A stretch of 13,453 bases of DNA. Source: an uncultured bacterium. GTDB taxonomy: Bacteria; Lernaellota; Lernaellaia; Lernaellales; Lernaellaceae. The DNA lies in NCBI GenBank assembly GCA_964534375.1, contig CAZHPN010000164.1:1-13453 (forward strand), read 5' to 3'. Both the position numbers and the translations under genes were made by a program. Positions 3,456-13,453 of this stretch are shown here, piece after piece. The notes below the pieces were generated by a model. It ran no database searches and was not told the DNA's origin. It worked only from the letters and a program-made list of their open reading frames with translations. How positions within the stretch are numbered: the first letter of the stretch is position 1; each line of letters begins with the position of its first letter.

Positions 3456-4868
3456 TTATTCCGCGATTTTGTGATATGTCGAGTTGTCGACCAGCAAACG
3501 GTTGACGACATTGCCGCCGGTGTCGGCGACGAAAATCCAATCGAGGCCCGGCACGTGCCGCGACGGGGTAACCAGCAGCCCCTGCGGCAAGAGGCCGACC
3601 GGAATCGGCGCCTGCTGTTCCGTCGTCTGGAGGCGGAACGTGTCGCCCTCGGATTCGTGGAAGGTCCCGGCGACGATCAGGAACTTGAGCTGGCCCTTGT
3701 CGGAAATGTAAGCCTGGCCCGTGTACGCCAGATTCGCCTGGAGTCCGCTGACGGTCCCGTTTACGGTCCAGTCGTCGTTGATTTGGTCGTACACGATGGT
3801 CCAGATCTCGTTGCGCGTGAGGCAGTCGGTAACCACAATATTGGTCATCGTCGGGTTGCTGAACGGATCCTGGTCGAAGAACACCGGCTGGTAGTAGCTG
3901 GCGACGCACGCGCGGTTTTGATCGGGATAGAAATAGTACAAATTCCCGTCGTCGCTCGTGATGAAACCCACCTTGCCGTCGGTCGTCAAAATCATGTCGT
4001 TCAGCGGCGCCTCCCAGGTGAACAAGTCGGCGGTTTGCGTCCAATTCGCCAGGTCGATGATGTGCAGTTGCACCGGGTCCCTGTTCAGCACGTACAGCAC
4101 GTCGCCAGCCACGCTCTCGACCATGCGGTCCGGGTTGCCCCCGAGGTAGAGCGAGTCGTCGAGCACCGTGTGCGTGGCGGTGTCCACGACGCGTACGGTC
4201 GCGTCCGCGCCCGTCACGTACGCCAGCGTGCCATCCCGGCTCACCAGCAGGCCGACCGGTGCGCTCGGCAACGCCACCTGGCCCGATAGCTCGTTTTTCA
4301 CGTTATCCCAGGTCACCAATTCGCTGCCGTCCGGGTCGGTGAACCAGACTTCCGGCTTCGCCGTCCACGCCGGCGGCACCGTCGCCGTAAACGACGCCGC
4401 GTCGATGGACGCCGGCGCGACGGAAACGCGCGCCTCGCGGAGAGCCAGCAGCAGTTTGGTCACGGCGAACGGCACGGGCGGCTGAATGAGGCGAATCGGC
4501 GCCAAGTTGGCGTCGGTCACGTAAATTTCGCTGCCGTCCGGCGTGATCGCGATGTCGTACGGCGCCAGGCCGACCCAAACCGTGTTGGGTTGATAAGGCA
4601 CGCGGTGCGCGCTGCTGATGATCTTGTCGGATTCGGCGGTCAGCACCGTCACGTTGCCGCCGAAGGAATTGATGGCGTAGACGAGCGGGCCGGTCACGGT
4701 ATTGGTCGTTGACGGCTGCGCCGCCAGGCGTGTCGGCCCGTAGAAATGGCGATGCGTCGCGCCCACTTTCGCGGGTTGGGTGCAGGCCACGGCGGCCCAG
4801 AGCGCCGCGGCGAAGACGGCGAGCGCGGCAAGACCGGCAAGAGAGCGGAAGTTCGCGCCGTCGGTCAT
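3456..4868 (-). CDS. YVTN/YncE-like beta-propeller lipoprotein (about 7 blades, 470 aa) with an inserted beta-rich domain
   Basis: Start moved to ATG 4868, which overlaps the upstream TGA (ATGA). Lipoprotein signal ...ALWAAVA-C29. Blades VYAINSFGGNVTVL, TPDGSEIYVTD, VWFTDPDG, SRDGTLAYVTGADATVRVVD, LYVLNRD, TTDGKVGFITSDDG, IFVADTGGNVV. Confidence 0.85.
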   Translation of the reverse strand: MTDGANFRSLAGLAALAVFAAALWAAVACTQPAKVGATHRHFYGPTRLAAQPSTTNTVTGPLVYAINSFGGNVTVLTAESDKIISSAHRVPYQPNTVWVGLAPYDIAITPDGSEIYVTDANLAPIRLIQPPVPFAVTKLLLALREARVSVAPASIDAASFTATVPPAWTAKPEVWFTDPDGSELVTWDNVKNELSGQVALPSAPVGLLVSRDGTLAYVTGADATVRVVDTATHTVLDDSLYLGGNPDRMVESVAGDVLYVLNRDPVQLHIIDLANWTQTADLFTWEAPLNDMILTTDGKVGFITSDDGNLYYFYPDQNRACVASYYQPVFFDQDPFSNPTMTNIVVTDCLTRNEIWTIVYDQINDDWTVNGTVSGLQANLAYTGQAYISDKGQLKFLIVAGTFHESEGDTFRLQTTEQQAPIPVGLLPQGLLVTPSRHVPGLDWIFVADTGGNVVNRLLVDNSTYHKIAE

Positions 4869-5962
4869 GGAATGCCCCAGATCTGGTCCTTGGTCATGGC
4901 GTCGTAGAGCGTCAGGTTGTGGCCTTTGAAATTGACCGACAACGCGTAGTAGTAATCCGGCCGTTCGGGCCGCGCAAAGAAGCGGATGTCGCACGGTCCG
5001 CCGCTGGCCGGCAACGACACCAGCGGCACGCCGGTTTCCGCATCCACCGGGATGACGGAATCGCTATCGAAATTCGTCACCCACACTTCCTTGCCGTCGG
5101 GGCGCACGGCGACGCCCATGGGGGCGCCGTCCATCGGCGCCGTACGGATCACGGCTTGCGCCGCATTGAGCGGCAACAGCGTCGCGTCGATCATCAGCAG
5201 GCCCGCCGGATGGCTCGAAGCGACGTACAAGCGGCGGCCGTCGGGCGAGAAATCGAGGCCGCGATAATCGTAGCCGGTCAGCGTCCGCGCCGTGGTCACG
5301 CCGAAGCTGGTCAGAAAATTGCCGTTTGCGCTGTCCAGGATCGAAACGGTGTTGATTCGCAAATTGGTCACGTAGACGTACTTGCCCTGCCGATCGTACT
5401 TCACGTCGTTGACGCCATTGGCCAACGTCGTGCTCGTCAGCAACTGGTTTGTCGCCAGATCGATGATCGAGACGTGCCCGCTTTGCTCGCAGGCGACGAA
5501 CAAACGCGCGCCGTCGGGCGAGAGCGCCAACCCGTAGGGCTGCAAGGCCGTCGGGATTCCGGCGAACCCGACTTGCGGGTTGATGGAAATCGGCTGCGGG
5601 TTCGCCGGGTCCGACAGGTCGAACAGCAGCACGGTGTTGATCCGCCGATCCGTCACGTAGGCGGTCTTGCCGTCGTTGCTGAGGACGATCTTGCCGAGGA
5701 AGGGATCGGTTTTCAGCCGGCGGATGACGCACAGGTCCCCGCGCGTCAGCGCGATGCGCAGGTCGATGGTCGAGAGGAAGCCGTGCTTGTCGGCGGACAA
5801 GCCGAAATTCCCGTTCGTGACGTACGCATAGGGCCAATTGATCGCGATGCCGACCGGCGAGTTGAACACGCCTTCGGTGCTGTTGGCCGGCGGTTCGGCG
5901 CACGCCGACAAACCGGCTGCGACCAGCGATAAAATCACGGCCATCACGAGCAAGCGCCGCAA
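4865..5962 (-). CDS. YVTN/YncE-family 7-bladed beta-propeller lipoprotein (365 aa)
   Basis: TTG start with AAAGGA 7 nt upstream. Lipobox LSA-C21. Literal YVTN repeats: AYVTNGN, DGKTAYVTD, SPDGARLFVAC, YVYVTNLRINTVSILD, SPDGRRLYVAS, RPDGKEVWVTNFDSDSVIPVD. Confidence 0.88.
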   Translation of the reverse strand: MRRLLVMAVILSLVAAGLSACAEPPANSTEGVFNSPVGIAINWPYAYVTNGNFGLSADKHGFLSTIDLRIALTRGDLCVIRRLKTDPFLGKIVLSNDGKTAYVTDRRINTVLLFDLSDPANPQPISINPQVGFAGIPTALQPYGLALSPDGARLFVACEQSGHVSIIDLATNQLLTSTTLANGVNDVKYDRQGKYVYVTNLRINTVSILDSANGNFLTSFGVTTARTLTGYDYRGLDFSPDGRRLYVASSHPAGLLMIDATLLPLNAAQAVIRTAPMDGAPMGVAVRPDGKEVWVTNFDSDSVIPVDAETGVPLVSLPASGGPCDIRFFARPERPDYYYALSVNFKGHNLTLYDAMTKDQIWGIP

Positions 5963-6049: not shown

Positions 6050-8104
6050 TCAATATTCCAGATTGTAGTTGTACCAATGCGCGAAGGTGGTCGCCGCCAT
6101 CAGAACGAACGCGAGCGCGACGGCAACCGCGCCGATGGTCCGGACGGCCGTCCGTCGCTGTCCCGACGGCAGCAGGTAGGTCAGAAACAGCCCGGCGAAG
6201 GGAACCAGATGAAACAACTTGTAAGCCGCCGCGTGCGCGGTCGCCGGCATAAAAACCGTCCAATAAGCGGCATCGACCAGCGGCGCGAGACAAAAAATGG
6301 CGGTCAGCATCACGTCGCCTTCGCGCAGCATAGCGCCGACGCACCACGCGGCGACGATGACGAGGAACGGCATGAGCGGAATGCGGTACCAGCCGAACGA
6401 CTTGTCCGAACTGATCGTGACGCTCGTAAAAACCAGCATGATCATCAGCGGCCAGATCACCATGCCGATCGAGGGTTTGCCGGCCTCGCCGGTCACCGAG
6501 AAATGGCGCCAGAAAACCACGGCGCACCACCAGAACCAGACGTAGGTCAAACCGCCGAAGCGCGCGGTAGTCACGCCCGTGTCGGTCAGCATCGTCCACA
6601 AACCGCGCGTCGAGAGCGCCGGCAACAACTGTTGGGCGTATTCGCGCGTTTGCAGGTTGGCGAAGACCCGCTTGAAGGTCTCCCAGCCGAAGATCGCGCC
6701 ATAAGCGAAATACGTGCTGAAAAACAGCACGCCGACGCCGATGACGATCAACGCCGCGTTCCAGCGGCGTTCGAGAACCAGCACCGCCGCCGTCGCGCCA
6801 ACCACCGCGACGCCCGTCCCCTTGAACACGCACGACAAGCCGGCCGCCAGCGCCGCCCCGGCCAGCGCGGCGCGCGACCGCGAATCGAGATAGCGCGCCG
6901 CGAACAACAACGCCCCGACAAACAGCGGCGTCAAGACGTTTTCGTCCTTTAACAGCCGCCCGGCAAAGGCCGCCGTGGGATTCAGCGCGTAAAAGGCGAC
7001 GGCCAGCAACGCCAGATCGCGACGACCCAGCGCGCGGACAGCCAGGAAATAAATCAGCAGCGCCGTCACCACCGCCAGCGCGATCGGCAGCGGCCGCGTT
7101 TCGCGAATGAAATACCGATCGTAGCGTTCGCTGAACTCGACGCCCCAACCGCGCAACAACAACCCCGTCACCAGCGCCAGGCCCGGCGTGTGATCGAAAA
7201 ACGGTTCGACGATCGTGAAGTTTTCGCCGAAGATCTTGCGGTTGGTTTTGATTTCCGAATGGCGGTAGGCGGGCAACTGCGACCACCCCGACGGCTCCCC
7301 GCGATACACGAGACTCAGCCCGTTGAGCATCGAGTCGTATTCGTCGGCGGTCTCGTTGGCGTAGGGCATGCGGTCGTAGCGCCACGCGCGCGTCGCCAGC
7401 GTAACCAGCAGCAACGCCGCCAGCGCGATCGCCGCACGCCGCGACGCCACGAAATTCCACACCGCGTCCGACGCGACCGGCCGCCGCCGCGCCAGCCAGG
7501 CCGCTTCCCCCGCGAACAGGGCGAGAAACAACACGATGCCGGCCGTCTTCGCCAACGGCAGAATCGGCCGCGTGCGGTAAAAATTCGACCACCCCAACGT
7601 GCGGAAGCCCTCATCGTTGCGCTGCCAGGTCAATTGCGGTCCCGTGTCGCCGCGATAGCTGGCCACGAACTGATGGAAGCCGGCGGCCAACGTTATCGGA
7701 CCGACTTCCGCCGAACGGGGCAGATTTTCCGTCCGCGAATCGATAGTGATGGACAGGATGCCCGGCGTTGCCGAGCGGAAAAAATAATGGCCGCCCGCGG
7801 GCACGCGCAGCCAGCCGCGCCACGTCGTTTGGAGAACGGGGATTCCCTGGTTGTCCCCAAACTTGTCCGTTTGCCAGCGCATGTAAACCGGTCCGGCGAA
7901 CAGTTGCCGTTTCGCGAAGTACATGCCCGGCTCGACGAGGGTCACGCACGGAATCAGATCCGTTTTCACCACCACGTCATATTCGGCAAGCAAACCGTGC
8001 GCCGGCCACAACGCATACGCGACGAGCGTCGGCGCCGCCAGCATCGCCAGGAACAGCGCCGGCATCTTCACCCGCAAAAATATCGATCGAATGATATTCT
8101 TCAA
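6050..8104 (-). CDS. GT-C membrane glycosyltransferase (ArnT/PMT-like, GT39/GT83 type) with an N-terminal PA14-like domain
   Basis: Many hydrophobic helices. Acidic loop ETADEY after the first TM of the GT domain, FFDHTPGL (DHPPL-type motif), GRLLKDE and CVFKGTG are typical of ArnT/PMT_2 enzymes. The N-terminal segment WRGWLRVPAGGHYFF...ITLAAGFHQFVASY...QLTWQ resembles PA14. The start codon (TTG 8104) is uncertain. Confidence 0.8.
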   Translation of the reverse strand: MKNIIRSIFLRVKMPALFLAMLAAPTLVAYALWPAHGLLAEYDVVVKTDLIPCVTLVEPGMYFAKRQLFAGPVYMRWQTDKFGDNQGIPVLQTTWRGWLRVPAGGHYFFRSATPGILSITIDSRTENLPRSAEVGPITLAAGFHQFVASYRGDTGPQLTWQRNDEGFRTLGWSNFYRTRPILPLAKTAGIVLFLALFAGEAAWLARRRPVASDAVWNFVASRRAAIALAALLLVTLATRAWRYDRMPYANETADEYDSMLNGLSLVYRGEPSGWSQLPAYRHSEIKTNRKIFGENFTIVEPFFDHTPGLALVTGLLLRGWGVEFSERYDRYFIRETRPLPIALAVVTALLIYFLAVRALGRRDLALLAVAFYALNPTAAFAGRLLKDENVLTPLFVGALLFAARYLDSRSRAALAGAALAAGLSCVFKGTGVAVVGATAAVLVLERRWNAALIVIGVGVLFFSTYFAYGAIFGWETFKRVFANLQTREYAQQLLPALSTRGLWTMLTDTGVTTARFGGLTYVWFWWCAVVFWRHFSVTGEAGKPSIGMVIWPLMIMLVFTSVTISSDKSFGWYRIPLMPFLVIVAAWCVGAMLREGDVMLTAIFCLAPLVDAAYWTVFMPATAHAAAYKLFHLVPFAGLFLTYLLPSGQRRTAVRTIGAVAVALAFVLMAATTFAHWYNYNLEY

Positions 8105-8239: not shown

Positions 8240-10384
8240 TCATGGACGGACGAGTTTGGGCGAGGCGCAAGGAATCGGCGCCAGGTCGTATTCGTTGGCG
8301 TGCGACGAACAGGGTTGGCAAAGGACCCCCTGTTCCGCCAACGCATCGCGCAGCACGGGAAAATCGATGGAATGGTATTTGAACTGGAATCGATTGAACG
8401 TATTTTTGATCCGCGTCGCCAATCCGGCCATAAAACCCTGGCGGAACGTTGCTCGCGCTTCCGCGTCCTCGGCGTAATGAAATGCAGCCTCGACCACCGA
8501 GCGCGCCGCCCGGATCGCGTCGTCGTCCAAGCCGGCCGCGTAGCCGAACCAAACGCCGAAACCGCGGGCCAACGCCAGCGAAAATTCGCGTTCCGTCAAT
8601 TGCGGGAAATAGGCCGAAAACTCGGCGGCGCGCGCCATCGCTTCCCGCTGAAGTTGCCCCTGATCGCGCGGCGTGCTCAACATGAATGCCGGAAGACGAG
8701 CGCCGATTTTCTCGTCGAGAATCCCGCGGCCCATGCCGTTCGTCGCCGCCAGCGCAATATTTTTTTCGACGGTCCCCATGCGCGACACGTCCGGTTCCGG
8801 AGGGGACGCCGACGCGAACGCCGGCGGCGCGCCCCGGTCGGCCAAGAATTGGGCAAGGCGCAATCCCTGCCCGATCGCGACATCGAGCCGAGCGAATTCC
8901 GGCCGCGAGTCGTCCTGGACAATTGCGACGAAGTCGTCCGTCGCCAGTCGGCGCCCAATCGCGACGTAGCCTTCCGGACGCCAGCGGCAGGGCAGTTTTG
9001 CGACCTCGGCGAAAGCCTCTTCGCGCGATCTCCAGCGGCTCGCGAGATCGTCGCCGACCAGTCGCCGGTAGTCGTCGCCGCGATGCGTCCGCTGCTGGCG
9101 CCAACCCTCGACCAGAACCCGCGCGTGCAACCCCGGGGGCGCCGCGATATTCGCAAATCCGGATAGCAGGAATGGCGTCATCACCAGCCATTTTTGATAC
9201 GGGCGCAGCCGCGCAAGAAAGAGCGACGCCAACGTGAAAAACGATAGCGAAAGCGTGGCGAAATATCGAGTTCCCGCCAGCGTGTCGAGGTCGAGTTCCT
9301 TGATGCTGAAGCCCAGGGCGGCGAAAAAAAAGAACAAATGAAACACGAGCAGCAACTTCGTCCATTGCGGGCCCGCCAGCTTGTTTTTTTTCGCCGCGAT
9401 CTCGCGAAATACGACCGCCACGCCGCCGGCGATCAGCAGCGGCCAGGCCATCGTCAGCAAATTGCCGGCGATGCCGCGGTAGCCGGCGCAAAACGGCAGT
9501 ATCCGAAAGAACAAATTCCACCAGCGCGCCGCGCAGACCGCCAATCTGCCGGCGACGTCCACCTGCCCCATTTCGATCGTCCGCGGGTAGTCCGGGGACA
9601 TGAGCACAGGCGACAAACCGATGGCGAAAGCGACGGCGCCCGGCCACAGCAATCGAAAGACGCCGTGGCGGCGCCAACGCAGGCCGGCGACCGTCGCGGC
9701 CGCCGCGACGAAGGGCAGATTTTCCGGCGAGAAAAACACGGCGAATCCCCCGACGAATCCGAACATAGACGTCTCGCCGAAGCGCGGGCCGTCGTTGGGC
9801 ATGCGCGTGAACAAGTAGAGCAGCAAGCCGAGAAAAAACAGGCTTTCGATGTGGATGGCGTAGGGTGCAAAATATGTCGACGCCAAGAACGGCGGCGGAA
9901 ACACGGCCCACAAAACGAACAGCAATCTCACCGGCGGCTCGTCGATGCGACCCAGCGCCAACGCCCAGAAAATGATCCCGCCGATCAGAAAGCAGGCGCT
10001 GAGCATCTTAAGCCATAGAAAGGACGAGCCGCACCATGCGTAAACCGGATACAGCAAAACGCCGAAGAGCATCGAACCAGTATTGTAAACACATTGATAG
10101 TGCCAGACCGACGACGCCAAACCATCGGCCAAACCAGCGGCGACATTGCCGATGGGCGCGCGATCCCCGATCTCCGCATCCGGGTCGAGAAAGCGGAACG
10201 AAAACATCAACAGGCCGAATGCCGCCGGCAGCGCCCACAGCCAGGCCCGGGCCAGCCGTGGGAAGCGCGCGGAAGCGGAGCAGGCGTTGCATCGGTCCAT
10301 GATTCCGCGTCGTCCCCCTGGCAAATGCGCCGCGGCGTCCGCTGCGGTTGGCGCGTTCGGAAGATCGTCGGTCGTCCGACTCAT
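8240..10384 (-). CDS. Multi-pass membrane protein, probable GT-C glycosyltransferase, with a soluble helical C-terminal domain
   Basis: About 10 or more TM segments in the N-terminal 430 aa. Acidic loop DPDAEIGD after TM1, followed by YQ..YNTGSML..LLYPVYAWCGSSFLWLKML, HIESL and a late RYF, a layout typical of ArnT-like GT-C proteins. The C-terminal part (about 280 aa) is hydrophilic. An alternative start is ATG 10300. Confidence 0.65.
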   Translation of the reverse strand: MSRTTDDLPNAPTAADAAAHLPGGRRGIMDRCNACSASARFPRLARAWLWALPAAFGLLMFSFRFLDPDAEIGDRAPIGNVAAGLADGLASSVWHYQCVYNTGSMLFGVLLYPVYAWCGSSFLWLKMLSACFLIGGIIFWALALGRIDEPPVRLLFVLWAVFPPPFLASTYFAPYAIHIESLFFLGLLLYLFTRMPNDGPRFGETSMFGFVGGFAVFFSPENLPFVAAAATVAGLRWRRHGVFRLLWPGAVAFAIGLSPVLMSPDYPRTIEMGQVDVAGRLAVCAARWWNLFFRILPFCAGYRGIAGNLLTMAWPLLIAGGVAVVFREIAAKKNKLAGPQWTKLLLVFHLFFFFAALGFSIKELDLDTLAGTRYFATLSLSFFTLASLFLARLRPYQKWLVMTPFLLSGFANIAAPPGLHARVLVEGWRQQRTHRGDDYRRLVGDDLASRWRSREEAFAEVAKLPCRWRPEGYVAIGRRLATDDFVAIVQDDSRPEFARLDVAIGQGLRLAQFLADRGAPPAFASASPPEPDVSRMGTVEKNIALAATNGMGRGILDEKIGARLPAFMLSTPRDQGQLQREAMARAAEFSAYFPQLTEREFSLALARGFGVWFGYAAGLDDDAIRAARSVVEAAFHYAEDAEARATFRQGFMAGLATRIKNTFNRFQFKYHSIDFPVLRDALAEQGVLCQPCSSHANEYDLAPIPCASPKLVRP

Positions 10385-10436
10385 TTCGGGTTTCTGTCAG
10401 GACAGTTGAATCCGGCAGGCGACGAAAAGCCGGCGG

Positions 10437-12332
10437 TCAGCAACTCGCGACCTTCTCTTGAATCTCGGCGAACGCTGCGACGACTTCCTTGAACTTCGCC
10501 CGCGCTTCCTCGCGCCGGCCGGCCGTCGCCGCGCGCGCCAGATCGGCCAACAGGCTCGGGAGGCGTTCGAGGCCCAGGCAGGCGGCCGACTCGGCCATCG
10601 TCGTGGCCGCTTCGCGAGCCCCAGAACCGCGCCCCGCCGCCAGGTCTTGGTCGAGTGTGCTCAGGTTTTGCGCAAATTCCTTCAGAAACAGGGCGAGGAT
10701 TTCGTCGACGGCGCCGGCTTCGCAATCGAAACGCGCCAGCAAATCGGCAACGAGCGGCGACGTCGTGGCTTTCCGGCGCGGCGCCTGGCGTTCTTTCAGA
10801 TACCGCTCGATCGCCTCGCGCAACACCGACGCATGGATCGGTTTGCCGATAATCTCCAGCATTCCCGGGATACGGCGCGGCTTCCGCGAACCCGGGCGGT
10901 TCGGCGGCGCCATGCCAATGACGGCCGGCTGCCGCAAGCCGCGCGACAGCGCCGATATCACCTCGCGCGCCTGGCCGACGTCGACAAACAATAAATCGTC
11001 GCCCAGCAGCAGGTCGATTTCGTCGACGCGGCGCGCGTGCGCCCGGCAACCCAGGTTTTCCAACAGTCGCAACATCACCAGGCAATGAACCGGGTTGCCG
11101 TCGATCACGCCGATCTGCAGTTGGCGGAACCGCAGTTCGCGCAACGAGTGGCGGGTGATTATCGCGGCGGGCTGCTTCGCCGGCGCTCGCTCCGCAAGCG
11201 GCGCCGCAACGGCCAACGCCCGCAGCAACAGCGACGGTTCGACCGGCTCGGTCAGGTAAGCCGCAAAGCCGATCTCGCGCAACCGCGCGGCGTCGCCGCG
11301 CCGACCCGTCGCCGCGACCAGGAGCAAGGCCGGACCGCGCATCGCCACGTCCGTCAACGCCGCGCGCCCGAAATCCTCCGCCGCCTGCCCGCCGCGGTCG
11401 CAAAATACCACGGCCGCCTGCAGCGGCGCGCCGCCGGTCGCCGCCCGCCGCATCGCCGTCAACGCGCCGGCGAACGAAGCCGCCATCTTGACCCGGCAGC
11501 CCCAGTCGCTGAACGCGGCCCGCCAGCGGCCGGCGCGTTCGCCGTCCGAATCGAGCAGCAATACGCGCATGCCTTCGAGCTTCGCCGGATGATCCGCCGC
11601 GACCGCCGCCCGGGTCGTTCGCCGGCCGAGCGCGATCGTGCACCACGCCTCCATTTCGGCCTCGCCGACTGCGGCCGCAAGGGTTCCGCCCATCGCGACG
11701 GCCAGCCGGCGGACCAGGGCGGCGCGCAGGACAGCCGGCGTCGGATCCTGACGCAGCCGTTGTTCCGCCGCGGCATCGTCCGTGAGCAACATCAGCCAGT
11801 CGCGGCGGCGATTCGCCGTCGCCGCCGCCGGGAATTGTGCGGAAAAACGCATGGCAAACGAATCCGGGTTTTCGCGCACCGGCGCGGCGGTCAACAAAAC
11901 GTCGGCCGGCGGCGCGTCGGTCGGTCCGAGCGACGCCAGATGCGCCAACAATTGCCGCAGCCGGCCGGGGTCGCCGACCGCGACGGCCGGCGTCTCGGGA
12001 TGCAACAGAAATTCGCAGTTCGCCCCGCGGCGCCGGCATTCCCGAAGCAGATCGTCCTGCACGCCGTCGAGCAAATCCCACAGGTCGAACGTCTCGCGAG
12101 CCAGCACGAAATTTCCTTCTTCCAGCCGCGTCAAATCGAGGATTTCGTTGATCAACGCCAGTAGCGCATGGGTTTCGCCCCGCGCCAGTTCCAAGAGGGC
12201 GCGCTGTTTGTCGTCGTCCGCGTTTTCCAAGAGCGCGGCGAACTCTTCGAGCAGCCCGCCGAGCGGCTGTCGCACGCGGCGGCTGAGGCCGGCAAACCAC
12301 GCGCGCCGGGGCGCCGATCGCTCTCGTTTCAC
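10437..12332 (-). CDS. Degenerate (pseudo) hybrid histidine kinase: HisKA-HATPase-REC-REC-Hpt, no sensor domain, 631 aa
   Basis: Start moved to GTG 12332 (GTGA overlap with the upstream stop; RBS GGGGAG 7 nt upstream). Scaffold motifs are recognisable: LLALINEILDLTRLEEG, FDL, VGDPGRLRQLL, RRLAVAMGG, LEGMRVLLLD, GRRGDAARLREIGFAAYLTEPV, IITRHSLRE, GKPI, ESAACLG. Most catalytic residues are substituted (see findings). Confidence 0.85.
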   Translation of the reverse strand: MKRERSAPRRAWFAGLSRRVRQPLGGLLEEFAALLENADDDKQRALLELARGETHALLALINEILDLTRLEEGNFVLARETFDLWDLLDGVQDDLLRECRRRGANCEFLLHPETPAVAVGDPGRLRQLLAHLASLGPTDAPPADVLLTAAPVRENPDSFAMRFSAQFPAAATANRRRDWLMLLTDDAAAEQRLRQDPTPAVLRAALVRRLAVAMGGTLAAAVGEAEMEAWCTIALGRRTTRAAVAADHPAKLEGMRVLLLDSDGERAGRWRAAFSDWGCRVKMAASFAGALTAMRRAATGGAPLQAAVVFCDRGGQAAEDFGRAALTDVAMRGPALLLVAATGRRGDAARLREIGFAAYLTEPVEPSLLLRALAVAAPLAERAPAKQPAAIITRHSLRELRFRQLQIGVIDGNPVHCLVMLRLLENLGCRAHARRVDEIDLLLGDDLLFVDVGQAREVISALSRGLRQPAVIGMAPPNRPGSRKPRRIPGMLEIIGKPIHASVLREAIERYLKERQAPRRKATTSPLVADLLARFDCEAGAVDEILALFLKEFAQNLSTLDQDLAAGRGSGAREAATTMAESAACLGLERLPSLLADLARAATAGRREEARAKFKEVVAAFAEIQEKVASC

Positions 12333-13453
12333 AGTCGACTCCCCCGTTGTTCCAGAAGGTTTCTGGCCATCTGCCGCGTGAACCCGGCGACGTTGCGGCT
12401 CATGCCCAGCCGCTTTAGGTCGGCGCTCGCCAGGATGCTGATGTGGCGAAAGACGAACCGCATCGGAGCCTTCGGATTGAAGCACAACGATCGCGTGACG
12501 TCATAATTCCGCAGCCATTCGCGATTGCGTGCGACTTTCTCCAGAATCGCCTGCGGCGTGGTGCGCTCTTTGATGACGTGAACGATCTCGCCGACGGTGA
12601 TCCGCGGATTTTCGAGCACGCTCTCTTGAATCAGCTTGTTCGGGTTGCGGATCAGTATCTGGCGCGTCTCCGAATTGCCGCGCCGCGCGAGCAGGATGCG
12701 GTCGACGATCGTCATGCGGGCGATGCGGCGCAGCAGCGGAACTTTTTTCGCCTCTTCCAGCGCCGTTTCCGGTTCCGCGGTCAAATCGTCGGCGAACAGT
12801 CCTTCGATATCGAAGTCGGCGGTGGCGAGATCCGGCAGACGCACGCAACGATGAAGATCCTCGTCCGGCACGGACAGCAAGCGCTCAGCCGCCGCGGCGT
12901 CGAGCGGCGGGGGGGTGGGCGCGACCGCCCGGCGCGCCGGCGGCCGGGCGAGCATTTCGGACGAAAGATCGGCGGTGAACGGCCGGCCTTTTTCGATCGC
13001 GTAAAACTTCGTCAAACGGTCGATGGCGCTCTGCGGCGTGTTTGGATTGCGCGTCAGGCCAAACAGAATGGCCGGGCTGCGGAGAATTGCGCGCTCGTTG
13101 CCGGCGATCGCCTCGATGACGCGATCGTGCGCCGCGGTTTCGGCCATTTCCGCGAGCGTCGCGTCCGTCACGTTTTGGTGCAGCGCGACTCGTTCGTGGA
13201 TGTGATGATTGTCGTACGGCCGATTCGCGACAAAATGCAGCAACTTCGGGTTGGCGGCGCCGGAAATGCCGATGAGCGTCAGGCTCTCCGGCAATTCGCG
13301 CAAGCTCTGTTGCGCTTCCTTCGCCACGTCGGGGTCTTTGTCGCCCGCCAGGTAGTACAGCGCCAAAAGCAGGTCGCGCGAGCCGAGCGGCACCAAGCCG
13401 CGGGCCCTGCCGAACCGCTGGGCCGGCAGCAAGTCCGGGATGAAGATCTCCCG
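12329..13453 (-). CDS. Conserved hypothetical alpha-helical repeat protein (LRV/HEAT-like); 5' end lies outside the window
   Basis: The frame stays open to the window edge (REIFIPD-LLPAQ...). Helical repeats with NP.TP motifs (LTRNPNTPQS, LENPRIT, KERTTPQAILEKVARNREW, CFNPKAP). The C-terminal block IARMTIVDRILLARRGNSETRQILIRNPNKLIQESVLENPRIT resembles a family I associate with deltaproteobacterial hypothetical proteins (from memory, not searched). Confidence 0.7.
   Translation of the reverse strand, partial: REIFIPDLLPAQRFGRARGLVPLGSRDLLLALYYLAGDKDPDVAKEAQQSLRELPESLTLIGISGAANPKLLHFVANRPYDNHHIHERVALHQNVTDATLAEMAETAAHDRVIEAIAGNERAILRSPAILFGLTRNPNTPQSAIDRLTKFYAIEKGRPFTADLSSEMLARPPARRAVAPTPPPLDAAAAERLLSVPDEDLHRCVRLPDLATADFDIEGLFADDLTAEPETALEEAKKVPLLRRIARMTIVDRILLARRGNSETRQILIRNPNKLIQESVLENPRITVGEIVHVIKERTTPQAILEKVARNREWLRNYDVTRSLCFNPKAPMRFVFRHISILASADLKRLGMSRNVAGFTRQMARNLLEQRGSRL

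Follow-up and report, generated by a model that had tools for sequence, protein, structure and literature searches.

The window analysed here is an entire contig of 13,453 bp (CAZHPN010000164.1) from a 6.3-Mb metagenome-assembled genome (MAG) with a completeness of 94%, and one end of its reverse strand carries two overlapping genes (Table 1). The second of the pair encodes a 631-residue protein (P0002) laid out as DHp / CA-like / REC1 / REC2 / Hpt, with no sensor domain ahead of a DHp that begins at residue 3. According to its structural model, Foldseek comparison and residue alignment, this protein keeps the fold of a kinase and has lost the catalytic residues, as a pseudokinase does. The first gene of the pair specifies a protein of HEAT/ARM-like helical repeats. 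The pseudokinase family is small and old, and its gene is translationally coupled to that of the repeat protein.

Because the G+C content of the window runs from 61 to 72%, long open frames lie on several strands. Among the overlapping frames, a protein similarity search returned homologs only for 10437..12332 (-), and the open reading frames 10381..12300 (-) and 11037..12164 (+) were rejected on that ground. The GTG start at 12332 and the stop (TGA) of the gene before it share a GTGA (12332-12329). The frame stays open farther upstream, to a GTG at 12485, and we accept 12332 as the better predicted start because eight of eight orthologs examined begin at the stop of their upstream gene, through an ATG overlap; the longer frame from 12485 was rejected for the same reason.

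Table 1. Features of the window, with the coupled gene pair and its domains first and the remaining genes last
Feature	Coordinates	Strand	Remarks
Pseudo-hybrid histidine kinase gene (P0002)	10437..12332	-	631 codons plus stop at 10439-10437
Ribosome-binding site GGGGGAG	12345-12339	-	6 nt 5' of the GTG start; lies in the 3'-terminal codons of the gene before it
DHp helical hairpin, residues 3-71	12120..12326	-	Pfam HisKA and model
Codon 18, CGC (Arg), at the H-box phospho-acceptor His position	12281-12279	-	Sequence and alignment
CA-like alpha/beta domain, residues 80-236	11625..12095	-	Without N, G1 and G2 boxes; alignment and model
REC1 pseudo-receiver, residues 256-381	11190..11567	-	F310, A340 and E362 at Asp/Thr/Lys; alignment and model
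REC1-REC2 linker motif IITRHSLRE, residues 391-399	11136..11162	-	Alignment
REC2 degenerate receiver, residues 406-516	10785..11117	-	D451 and K497 kept; alignment and model
Hpt-like four-helix bundle, residues 526-630	10443..10757	-	T577 for His, AE for KG; Pfam and model
Upstream partner gene, HEAT/ARM-like repeat protein	12329..13453	-	5' end lost at contig end
Predicted polytopic membrane protein, 714 aa	8240-10384	-	No Pfam match
PMT_2-like glycosyltransferase	6050-8104	-
Lactonase/SGL-type beta-propeller-like frame	4865-5962	-
Lactonase/SGL-type beta-propeller-like frame	3456-4994	-
Lactonase/SGL-type beta-propeller-like frame	1280-2797	+
TPR protein	408-1169	-

Two of the five domains are recognized by Pfam: HisKA (PF00512), with 36.8 bits (cut-off 26.9) over residues 9-73, and Hpt, which scores 21.8 bits within the whole protein and 27.1 bits (cut-off 24.6) in a search confined to the last 111 residues. 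HATPase_c and Response_reg gave no Pfam match at E<=10, either in the whole protein or in the isolated CA, REC1 and REC2 segments, and the identity of these three domains was drawn instead from full-length homology, an AlphaFold2 model and Foldseek. Dozens of HisKA-HATPase-REC-REC-Hpt proteins align with it over 98-99% of the length at 25-29% identity, and chance resemblance is excluded by E values of 4.6e-145 (ortholog P0003) and about 1e-47 (canonical kinases). Residues 12-523 are also covered by an alignment to the NCBIfam BarA model (E 4.7e-14), far under its cut-off. The AlphaFold2 model, built from a 70-sequence alignment, contains five domains at a mean predicted local distance difference test score (pLDDT) of 87.4, and its predicted TM-score of 0.50 leaves the packing between domains uncertain. 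REC1 is modeled as a complete (beta-alpha)5 fold and REC2 without its alpha4 helix, and the CA-like domain has helices (residues 173-195) at the location of the ATP lid. Top PDB matches from Foldseek were ShkA (6qrj, full-length, E 2.3e-19), GacS (7z8n), RetS (6dk7, 6dk8 and 7n0e), HK853 and DivL (4q20). An earlier sequence-only reading of this DNA had proposed the same domain layout, in an unbroken 631-codon frame with a ribosome-binding site and no sensor domain, and all of this holds.

Residues at the catalytic positions were read from an alignment of 12 orthologs, the window copy among them, with 58 canonical hybrid kinases (Table 2). The motif strings quoted in the sequence-only reading are all present (SRRVRQP, AHLASLGPTD, FSAQFPAAA, PTPAVLRAAL, AVVF, EP for KP and, in Hpt, ATTMAESAACLG), as is the Arg codon CGC, and the alignment yielded no shifted substitute for any catalytic residue, confirming that they are lost rather than displaced. 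An Asp two residues past the REC1 site is not conserved among the orthologs, and the window Hpt region is devoid of His, its site reading T577..A580-E581. A His on DHp helix 2 (His55, in GETHALL; codon 12170-12168) is shared by 7 of the 12 orthologs, at a site occupied in canonical kinases by Asp, Glu or Gln; it is unlikely as a replacement acceptor because it is not universal in the orthologs. Set beside an active HisKA kinase, the protein has a recognizable HisKA domain and is without the H-box His, an acidic residue one place after it (H+1), Thr or Asn four places after it (H+4), and the N, G1 and G2 boxes. Set beside an unorthodox kinase, it has full-length homology to the HK-REC-(REC)-Hpt series (HK, histidine kinase) and is without a complete receiver pocket or the HxxKG of Hpt. 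To the extent that sequence alone can decide, autophosphorylation driven by ATP is excluded. The claim of a relay dead from end to end was right for the ATP boxes, REC1 and Hpt and went too far for REC2, where D451 and K497 persist.

Table 2. Residues at catalytic positions in the window protein, its orthologs and canonical hybrid kinases
Position	Window	Orthologs	Canonical
H-box His	R18	H 11/12	H 54/58
H+1	R19	Variable (R/E/Q/N)	E 55/58
H+4	Q22	Q 12/12	T 50/58
N-box Mg-ATP Asn	L135	Absent 12/12	N 57/58
G1 D/G/G	F/A/A	All three in 0/12: Asp 4, first Gly 4, second Gly 2	57/57/57 of 58
G2 G/G/G	P/V/R	Third Gly is R 10/12, Q 2/12	G 57-58/58
REC1 Asp	F310	Absent 12/12	D 55/58
REC1 Thr	A340	Kept 8/12	T 49/58
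REC1 Lys	E362	Kept 1/12	K 58/58
REC2 Asp	D451	Kept 9/12	D 58/58
REC2 Lys	K497	Kept 6/12	K 58/58
REC2 Thr	A475	Absent 12/12	T 56/58
REC2 second acidic residue	G412	D 3/12, E 1/12	D 57/58
Hpt His	T577	Absent in 10/10 with domain	H 43/43 with domain

Most of these losses are properties of a family rather than of one gene. Sensorless relatives of about 630 residues were found at 32-49% identity in the similarity search, the nearest being 47-49% identical, and the aligned orthologs are 26-47% identical overall to the window copy. Orthologs occur in eight related genomes, five of seven from the same taxonomic family and three of seven from a neighboring one. A search of 1.84 billion representative proteins with a profile built from the 12 orthologs yielded 11 family clusters at 543-819 bits and canonical long kinases at no more than 530 bits. 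The one exception, P0123, is a canonical hybrid kinase of 1558 residues that reaches 687 bits, the highest of the canonical proteins; its kinase, REC2 and Hpt residues are intact, its REC1 phospho-Asp is Ala, and it is possibly the closest relative that is still active, at a stage preceding the losses. Representatives of the 11 clusters, a set overlapping the 12 orthologs, all carry Gln at H+4 and lack the N-box Asn and REC1 Asp; the Hpt His is absent from 10 of 10. A midpoint-rooted FastTree tree of 70 sequences over 627 columns places all 12 orthologs, with their shared losses, in a single clade with support of 1.0. The family is confined to an uncultured lineage that carries depositor labels of "bacterium" or "Deltaproteobacteria bacterium," and source databases name the proteins only as "hypothetical protein," "CheY-like chemotaxis protein" or "response regulator." Two early-branching orthologs (L030:5194-6765 and L024:9196-10767) end after REC2, without Hpt, and the REC2 of the former scores 67 bits on Pfam Response_reg; together they suggest stepwise erosion inside the clade.

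The H-box is where the window copy departs from its family. The change of His to Arg is private to the window species, and the window protein is sister in the tree to P0003, in which the His is retained. Arg18 is identical in P0117, in L108 and in DNA contigs from two further samples (runs X2 and X3), which span codon 18 without a difference. The loss noted in the sequence-only reading is thus real in this species and present in independent assemblies, and it is not a family trait. Its rarity raises the possibility that the family consists of His phosphotransferases of the ChpT/Spo0B type, in which the DHp His shuttles phosphate between receivers and the CA-like domain serves only structure and recognition; Gln in place of Thr at H+4 would then suppress hydrolysis, and the Arg of the window copy would be a recent loss-of-function or dominant-negative allele. 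Such an origin would account for a His that survives in nearly every ortholog and cluster representative despite the low identity to the window copy, for a DHp that is the most conserved domain of all, and for ATP boxes lost in every member with helices in the lid region of the model, as in ChpT (PMC3433190). The H+1 position, a residue only kinases need, is variable, and Gln at H+4 recalls CrdS, whose phosphatase activity was abolished when the Asn of this position was changed to Gln (PMC3510030). Were the His essential, however, the Arg copy would not be expected to keep 58 of 60 conserved residues, to show no acceleration and to be fixed across samples; no cognate receiver gene lies near any of eight ortholog loci, and purifying selection also acts on REC1 and Hpt, two domains for which a simple shuttle has no use. 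By sequence and model, the window protein has the ATP-incompetent Bergerat-fold domain of such proteins and, with Arg18, lacks their shuttling His. We regard this explanation, the main rival to the one proposed below, as unlikely.

Estimates of selection come from four ortholog pairs in two genera, compared by the Nei-Gojobori method. The ratio of nonsynonymous to synonymous substitution (dN/dS) was 0.092, 0.109 and 0.112 for the pairs of one genus and 0.151 for that of the other, ranged from 0.035 to 0.19 by domain across all five domains, and was 0.057 and 0.099 for the neighboring gene. Of 60 positions at which the other eleven orthologs hardly vary, the window copy deviates at two (the His and one gapped Gly), within a range of 2-13 across the 12 and jointly lowest with P0003 and P0007. 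Of the two sister proteins, P0003 has the longer terminal branch. A second assembly differs from the window at 10 sites over 4,885 aligned nt, all outside the gene, whose 1,893 nt are identical in both. Five contigs from an RNA library fall on the window, of which two are exact full-length matches, one of these on the pseudokinase gene. This contig of 244 nt matches 12180-12423, spanning the gene junction and codon 18, and is a weak hint of expression, as the library may hold DNA; stretches without a contig carry no information.

These observations bear on whether the window copy is a young pseudogene that has yet to acquire a stop or frameshift. It is the sole family member without the DHp His, and its own branch yields no dN/dS value, both of which leave room for this reading. 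Against it stand a frame open for 631 codons in DNA of 65-72% G+C, the near-complete retention of conserved residues, the short terminal branch, the intact ribosome-binding site and GTGA coupling, the absence of differences from the second assembly, and the RNA-library contig over the 5' end of the gene. A pseudogene is therefore most improbable; judged from its sequence, the gene is intact and not decaying. The sequence-only reading had named, as signs of decay, orthologs that keep their catalytic residues together with a dN/dS near 1, and the two parts diverge: the DHp His is indeed kept in the relatives, but their ratios lie between 0.09 and 0.15. Its proposal that selection has kept the protein as a non-kinase is supported for the family by those ratios and, indirectly, for the window copy by its low count of departures and short terminal branch.

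A different kind of activity might survive in REC2, where Asp451 could still be phosphorylated by a canonical hybrid kinase or acetyl phosphate, making the protein a phosphate sink or a phospho-switched adaptor. The Asp and Lys of the pocket are present in the window copy, the Asp is kept in most orthologs, the REC2 of the early-branching L030 ortholog remains recognizable to Pfam, and the genome encodes two canonical PAS-HisKA-HATPase-REC-REC-Hpt paralogs (L110:3044-6997 and L111:2706-7610) that could serve as donors. The pocket is nevertheless incomplete, with the Thr lost from every ortholog, the Lys kept in only half of them, and the second acidic, Mg-binding residue replaced by Gly in the window protein, whose REC2 escapes Pfam and is modeled without alpha4. 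Just 4 of 116 REC2 positions are conserved across the family, and a conserved REC Asp is dispensable in the hybrid pseudokinase PsmA (PMC12963549). We consider a phosphate-accepting REC2 to be decidedly unlikely as the basis of function.

Conservation lies elsewhere in the protein. Near-invariant positions number 17 of 75 in DHp, eight of them specific to the family (F13, L16, Q22, L24, L67, R69, N74 and F75), and 24 of 140 in REC1; Hpt has none in 111. Within REC1 one conserved motif, GQxAEDFGR, occupies what was the phospho-pocket, and another, GRRGDAARLREIGFAAYLT, the alpha4-beta5-alpha5 face; G315, Q316 and A318 are family-specific here. In the linker that follows, every one of the 12 orthologs has T393, R394, H395 and E399, in a motif that is also common to canonical relatives.

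The upstream gene is the pseudokinase's one constant neighbor. A comparison of 11 window proteins with eight ortholog loci found only two recurring genes, the kinase-like gene at 8/8 and the upstream gene at 7/8 (the eighth locus begins inside the kinase gene), and the two adjoin in all seven relatives where the site is visible. Start and stop overlap as ATGA or GTGA at nine of nine junctions examined, behind a GGAG-type site. The full-length partner has 390 residues in the window species (L108:1832-3004) and 385-398 across the set. It gave no significant match in Pfam, NCBIfam or a PDB profile search, and Pfam has no model for its family; its structural model (pLDDT 90.8) consists of two all-helical repeat domains with a disordered linker between them, for which Foldseek returned only weak ARM/HEAT-like matches (E>=3e-3) and the ESM Atlas only clusters of "hypothetical protein." Homologs of the partner (25-35% identity) have a wide distribution, for the most part among MAGs labeled Myxococcota or Deltaproteobacteria, and are followed by the kinase-like gene in only 6 of 80 loci, a seventh close locus ending too early to tell. 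A predicted complex of pseudokinase residues 6-631 with the upstream protein scored 0.16 and 0.20 against a mark of 0.32, which speaks neither for nor against binding.

Two further contexts of the partner homologs were seen. In 20 of the 80 loci, mostly in MAGs with the same Myxococcota or Deltaproteobacteria labels, the homolog lies directly downstream of an EF-G paralog. In a Myxococcaceae MAG (L069) it follows birA and coaX and faces a gene for a REC and coiled-coil protein.

Taken together, we propose with moderate confidence that the protein is a phosphorylation-independent dimeric adaptor or regulator that acts through the surfaces of DHp and REC1, with the repeat protein. It would have arisen from a PAS-HisKA-HATPase-REC-REC-Hpt unorthodox kinase, retaining five folds in a soluble, sensorless form and losing normal ATP binding, autophosphorylation and phosphate relay through REC1 or Hpt. 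Partners would be bound by its best conserved parts, the DHp hairpin, the alpha4-beta5-alpha5 face of REC1 and the linker, probably jointly with the repeat protein made alongside it, much as PsmA and DivL work or as RetS does in its binding mode. The more specific roles put forward in the sequence-only reading, a heterodimer inhibitor of a paralogous kinase or a localization hub, are conjectural. We favor an adaptor that only binds because the catalytic sites are gone and conservation is concentrated in DHp, the REC1 face and the linker. Canonical HisKA phosphatase activity appears unlikely because H+4 is Gln, the residue with which CrdS lost its phosphatase activity; the idea of a dedicated response-regulator phosphatase, suggested by an invariant amide side chain at H+4, was rejected as a lead on the same evidence. 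Several points weigh against the adaptor proposal. The DHp His, kept by 11 of the 12 orthologs and 10 of the 11 cluster representatives, and unlike its freely varying counterpart in PsmA (PMC12963549), points to a phospho-function in the family to which the window copy may be an exception, not the rule; REC2, with Asp451 and Lys497, may still accept phosphate; and, because all closer sequences located by cluster look-up and metagenome scan (cluster members and two metagenome contigs) are protein-identical, dN/dS on the window's own branch is not estimable and the ratios are family values only.

A broader possibility, which we offer tentatively and regard as doubtful, is an undescribed two-protein signaling module in which the helical-repeat protein is joined to an unorthodox-kinase scaffold re-used beyond ATP-driven relay, either as a ChpT-like His shuttle set among dead REC and Hpt domains or as a REC1-based binding platform. 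If such a module exists, the platform would comprise the rebuilt pocket (GQxAEDFGR) and the alpha4-beta5-alpha5 face and would bind a ligand or partner, and the window species would be a natural His-less variant showing that the module works without a phosphorylatable His.

The adaptor proposal has precedents among characterized proteins. One of the closest is PsmA of Streptomyces venezuelae, a hybrid histidine pseudokinase that lacks the H-box His and ATP motifs and has no autokinase activity (PMC12963549). Neither mutation of its REC Asp nor restoration of its H-box changed its function, which is independent of canonical phosphorelay, as we propose for the window protein; both also lack the H-E/D-x-x-T/N motif, and each is conserved in one lineage (PMC12963549). 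Unlike the window protein, PsmA is much larger and binds DivIVA; it contains PAS domains, an extended disordered stretch and a single Asp-bearing REC but no Hpt, and its His position varies freely among homologs, whereas that of the window protein is kept in its relatives (PMC12963549). The comparison is one of features, between members of a common superfamily. The best structural match, ShkA of Caulobacter crescentus (534 aligned columns), resembles the window protein in lacking an N-terminal sensor, in its order of DHp, CA, pseudo-receiver REC1 and REC2, and in a conserved linker motif and REC1 alpha4-beta5-alpha5 face, although the linker motif here is IITRHSLRE and not the DDR of ShkA (PMC6969517). 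In ShkA a linker motif docks on the REC1 face in competition with cyclic di-GMP, and in contrast to the window protein ShkA is an active kinase with its His, ATP site and a canonical REC2, a cyclic di-GMP switch at REC1 and no fused Hpt (PMC6969517).

ChpT and Spo0B have a four-helix-bundle DHp dimer, as the window protein probably does, and share with it a Bergerat-fold domain in which the lid has become helical; ChpT has extra helical turns in place of the ATP lid, binds no ATP and has no REC or Hpt domains (PMC3433190). Its DHp His is likewise present in the window protein's relatives and missing from the window copy (PMC3433190). RetS of Pseudomonas aeruginosa acts by three mechanisms, in one of which it blocks GacS by binding alone, through a DHp-DHp heterodimer; it differs from the window protein in its membrane sensor and in two further, dephosphorylating mechanisms (PMC8498467). 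With these accounts of PsmA (PMC12963549), ChpT and RetS already published, the view that loss across a whole relay is unusual was overstated. RetS, like the window protein, has a kinase core followed by two receivers, and its kinase region is among the top structural matches (E about 1e-11).

The NCBIfam RcsD model aligns with residues 8-132 of the window protein (E 2.1e-8), far under its cut-off. RcsD of enterobacteria is itself derived from a hybrid kinase and joins a His-less kinase-like core, a degenerate receiver-like domain and Hpt in one polypeptide; it is a membrane protein with a functional Hpt His, which the window protein has lost. DivL is a known bacterial histidine pseudokinase. 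Histidine pseudokinases are reportedly only now being characterized, DivL among them and PsmA in 2026. The class is thus already known, and what is new is the window family, the graded erosion of five modules, the obligate pairing with a repeat protein and a member that naturally lacks the His; literature searches on the pseudokinase concept and its analogs found no description of the family.

That five unorthodox-kinase modules are kept as folds under purifying selection with nearly every phosphoryl site gone extends the pseudokinase idea. The family offers a natural series, from early members with a near-canonical REC2, through a majority that keep only the DHp His, to one species without it, and this series, together with the co-translated HEAT/ARM-like partner, supplies constructs for asking what role a kinase scaffold plays after catalysis is lost. 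The immediate impact is modest, as the organisms are uncultured.

The remainder of the window has no counterpart at the loci of the relatives: no downstream context is conserved at the eight ortholog loci, and the membrane, glycosyltransferase-like and beta-propeller genes of the window do not lie beside the orthologs. The 714-residue membrane protein begins 53 nt past the pseudokinase stop and is followed by the glycosyltransferase. The beta-propeller-like frames occupy the left half of the contig, with the TPR protein near them.

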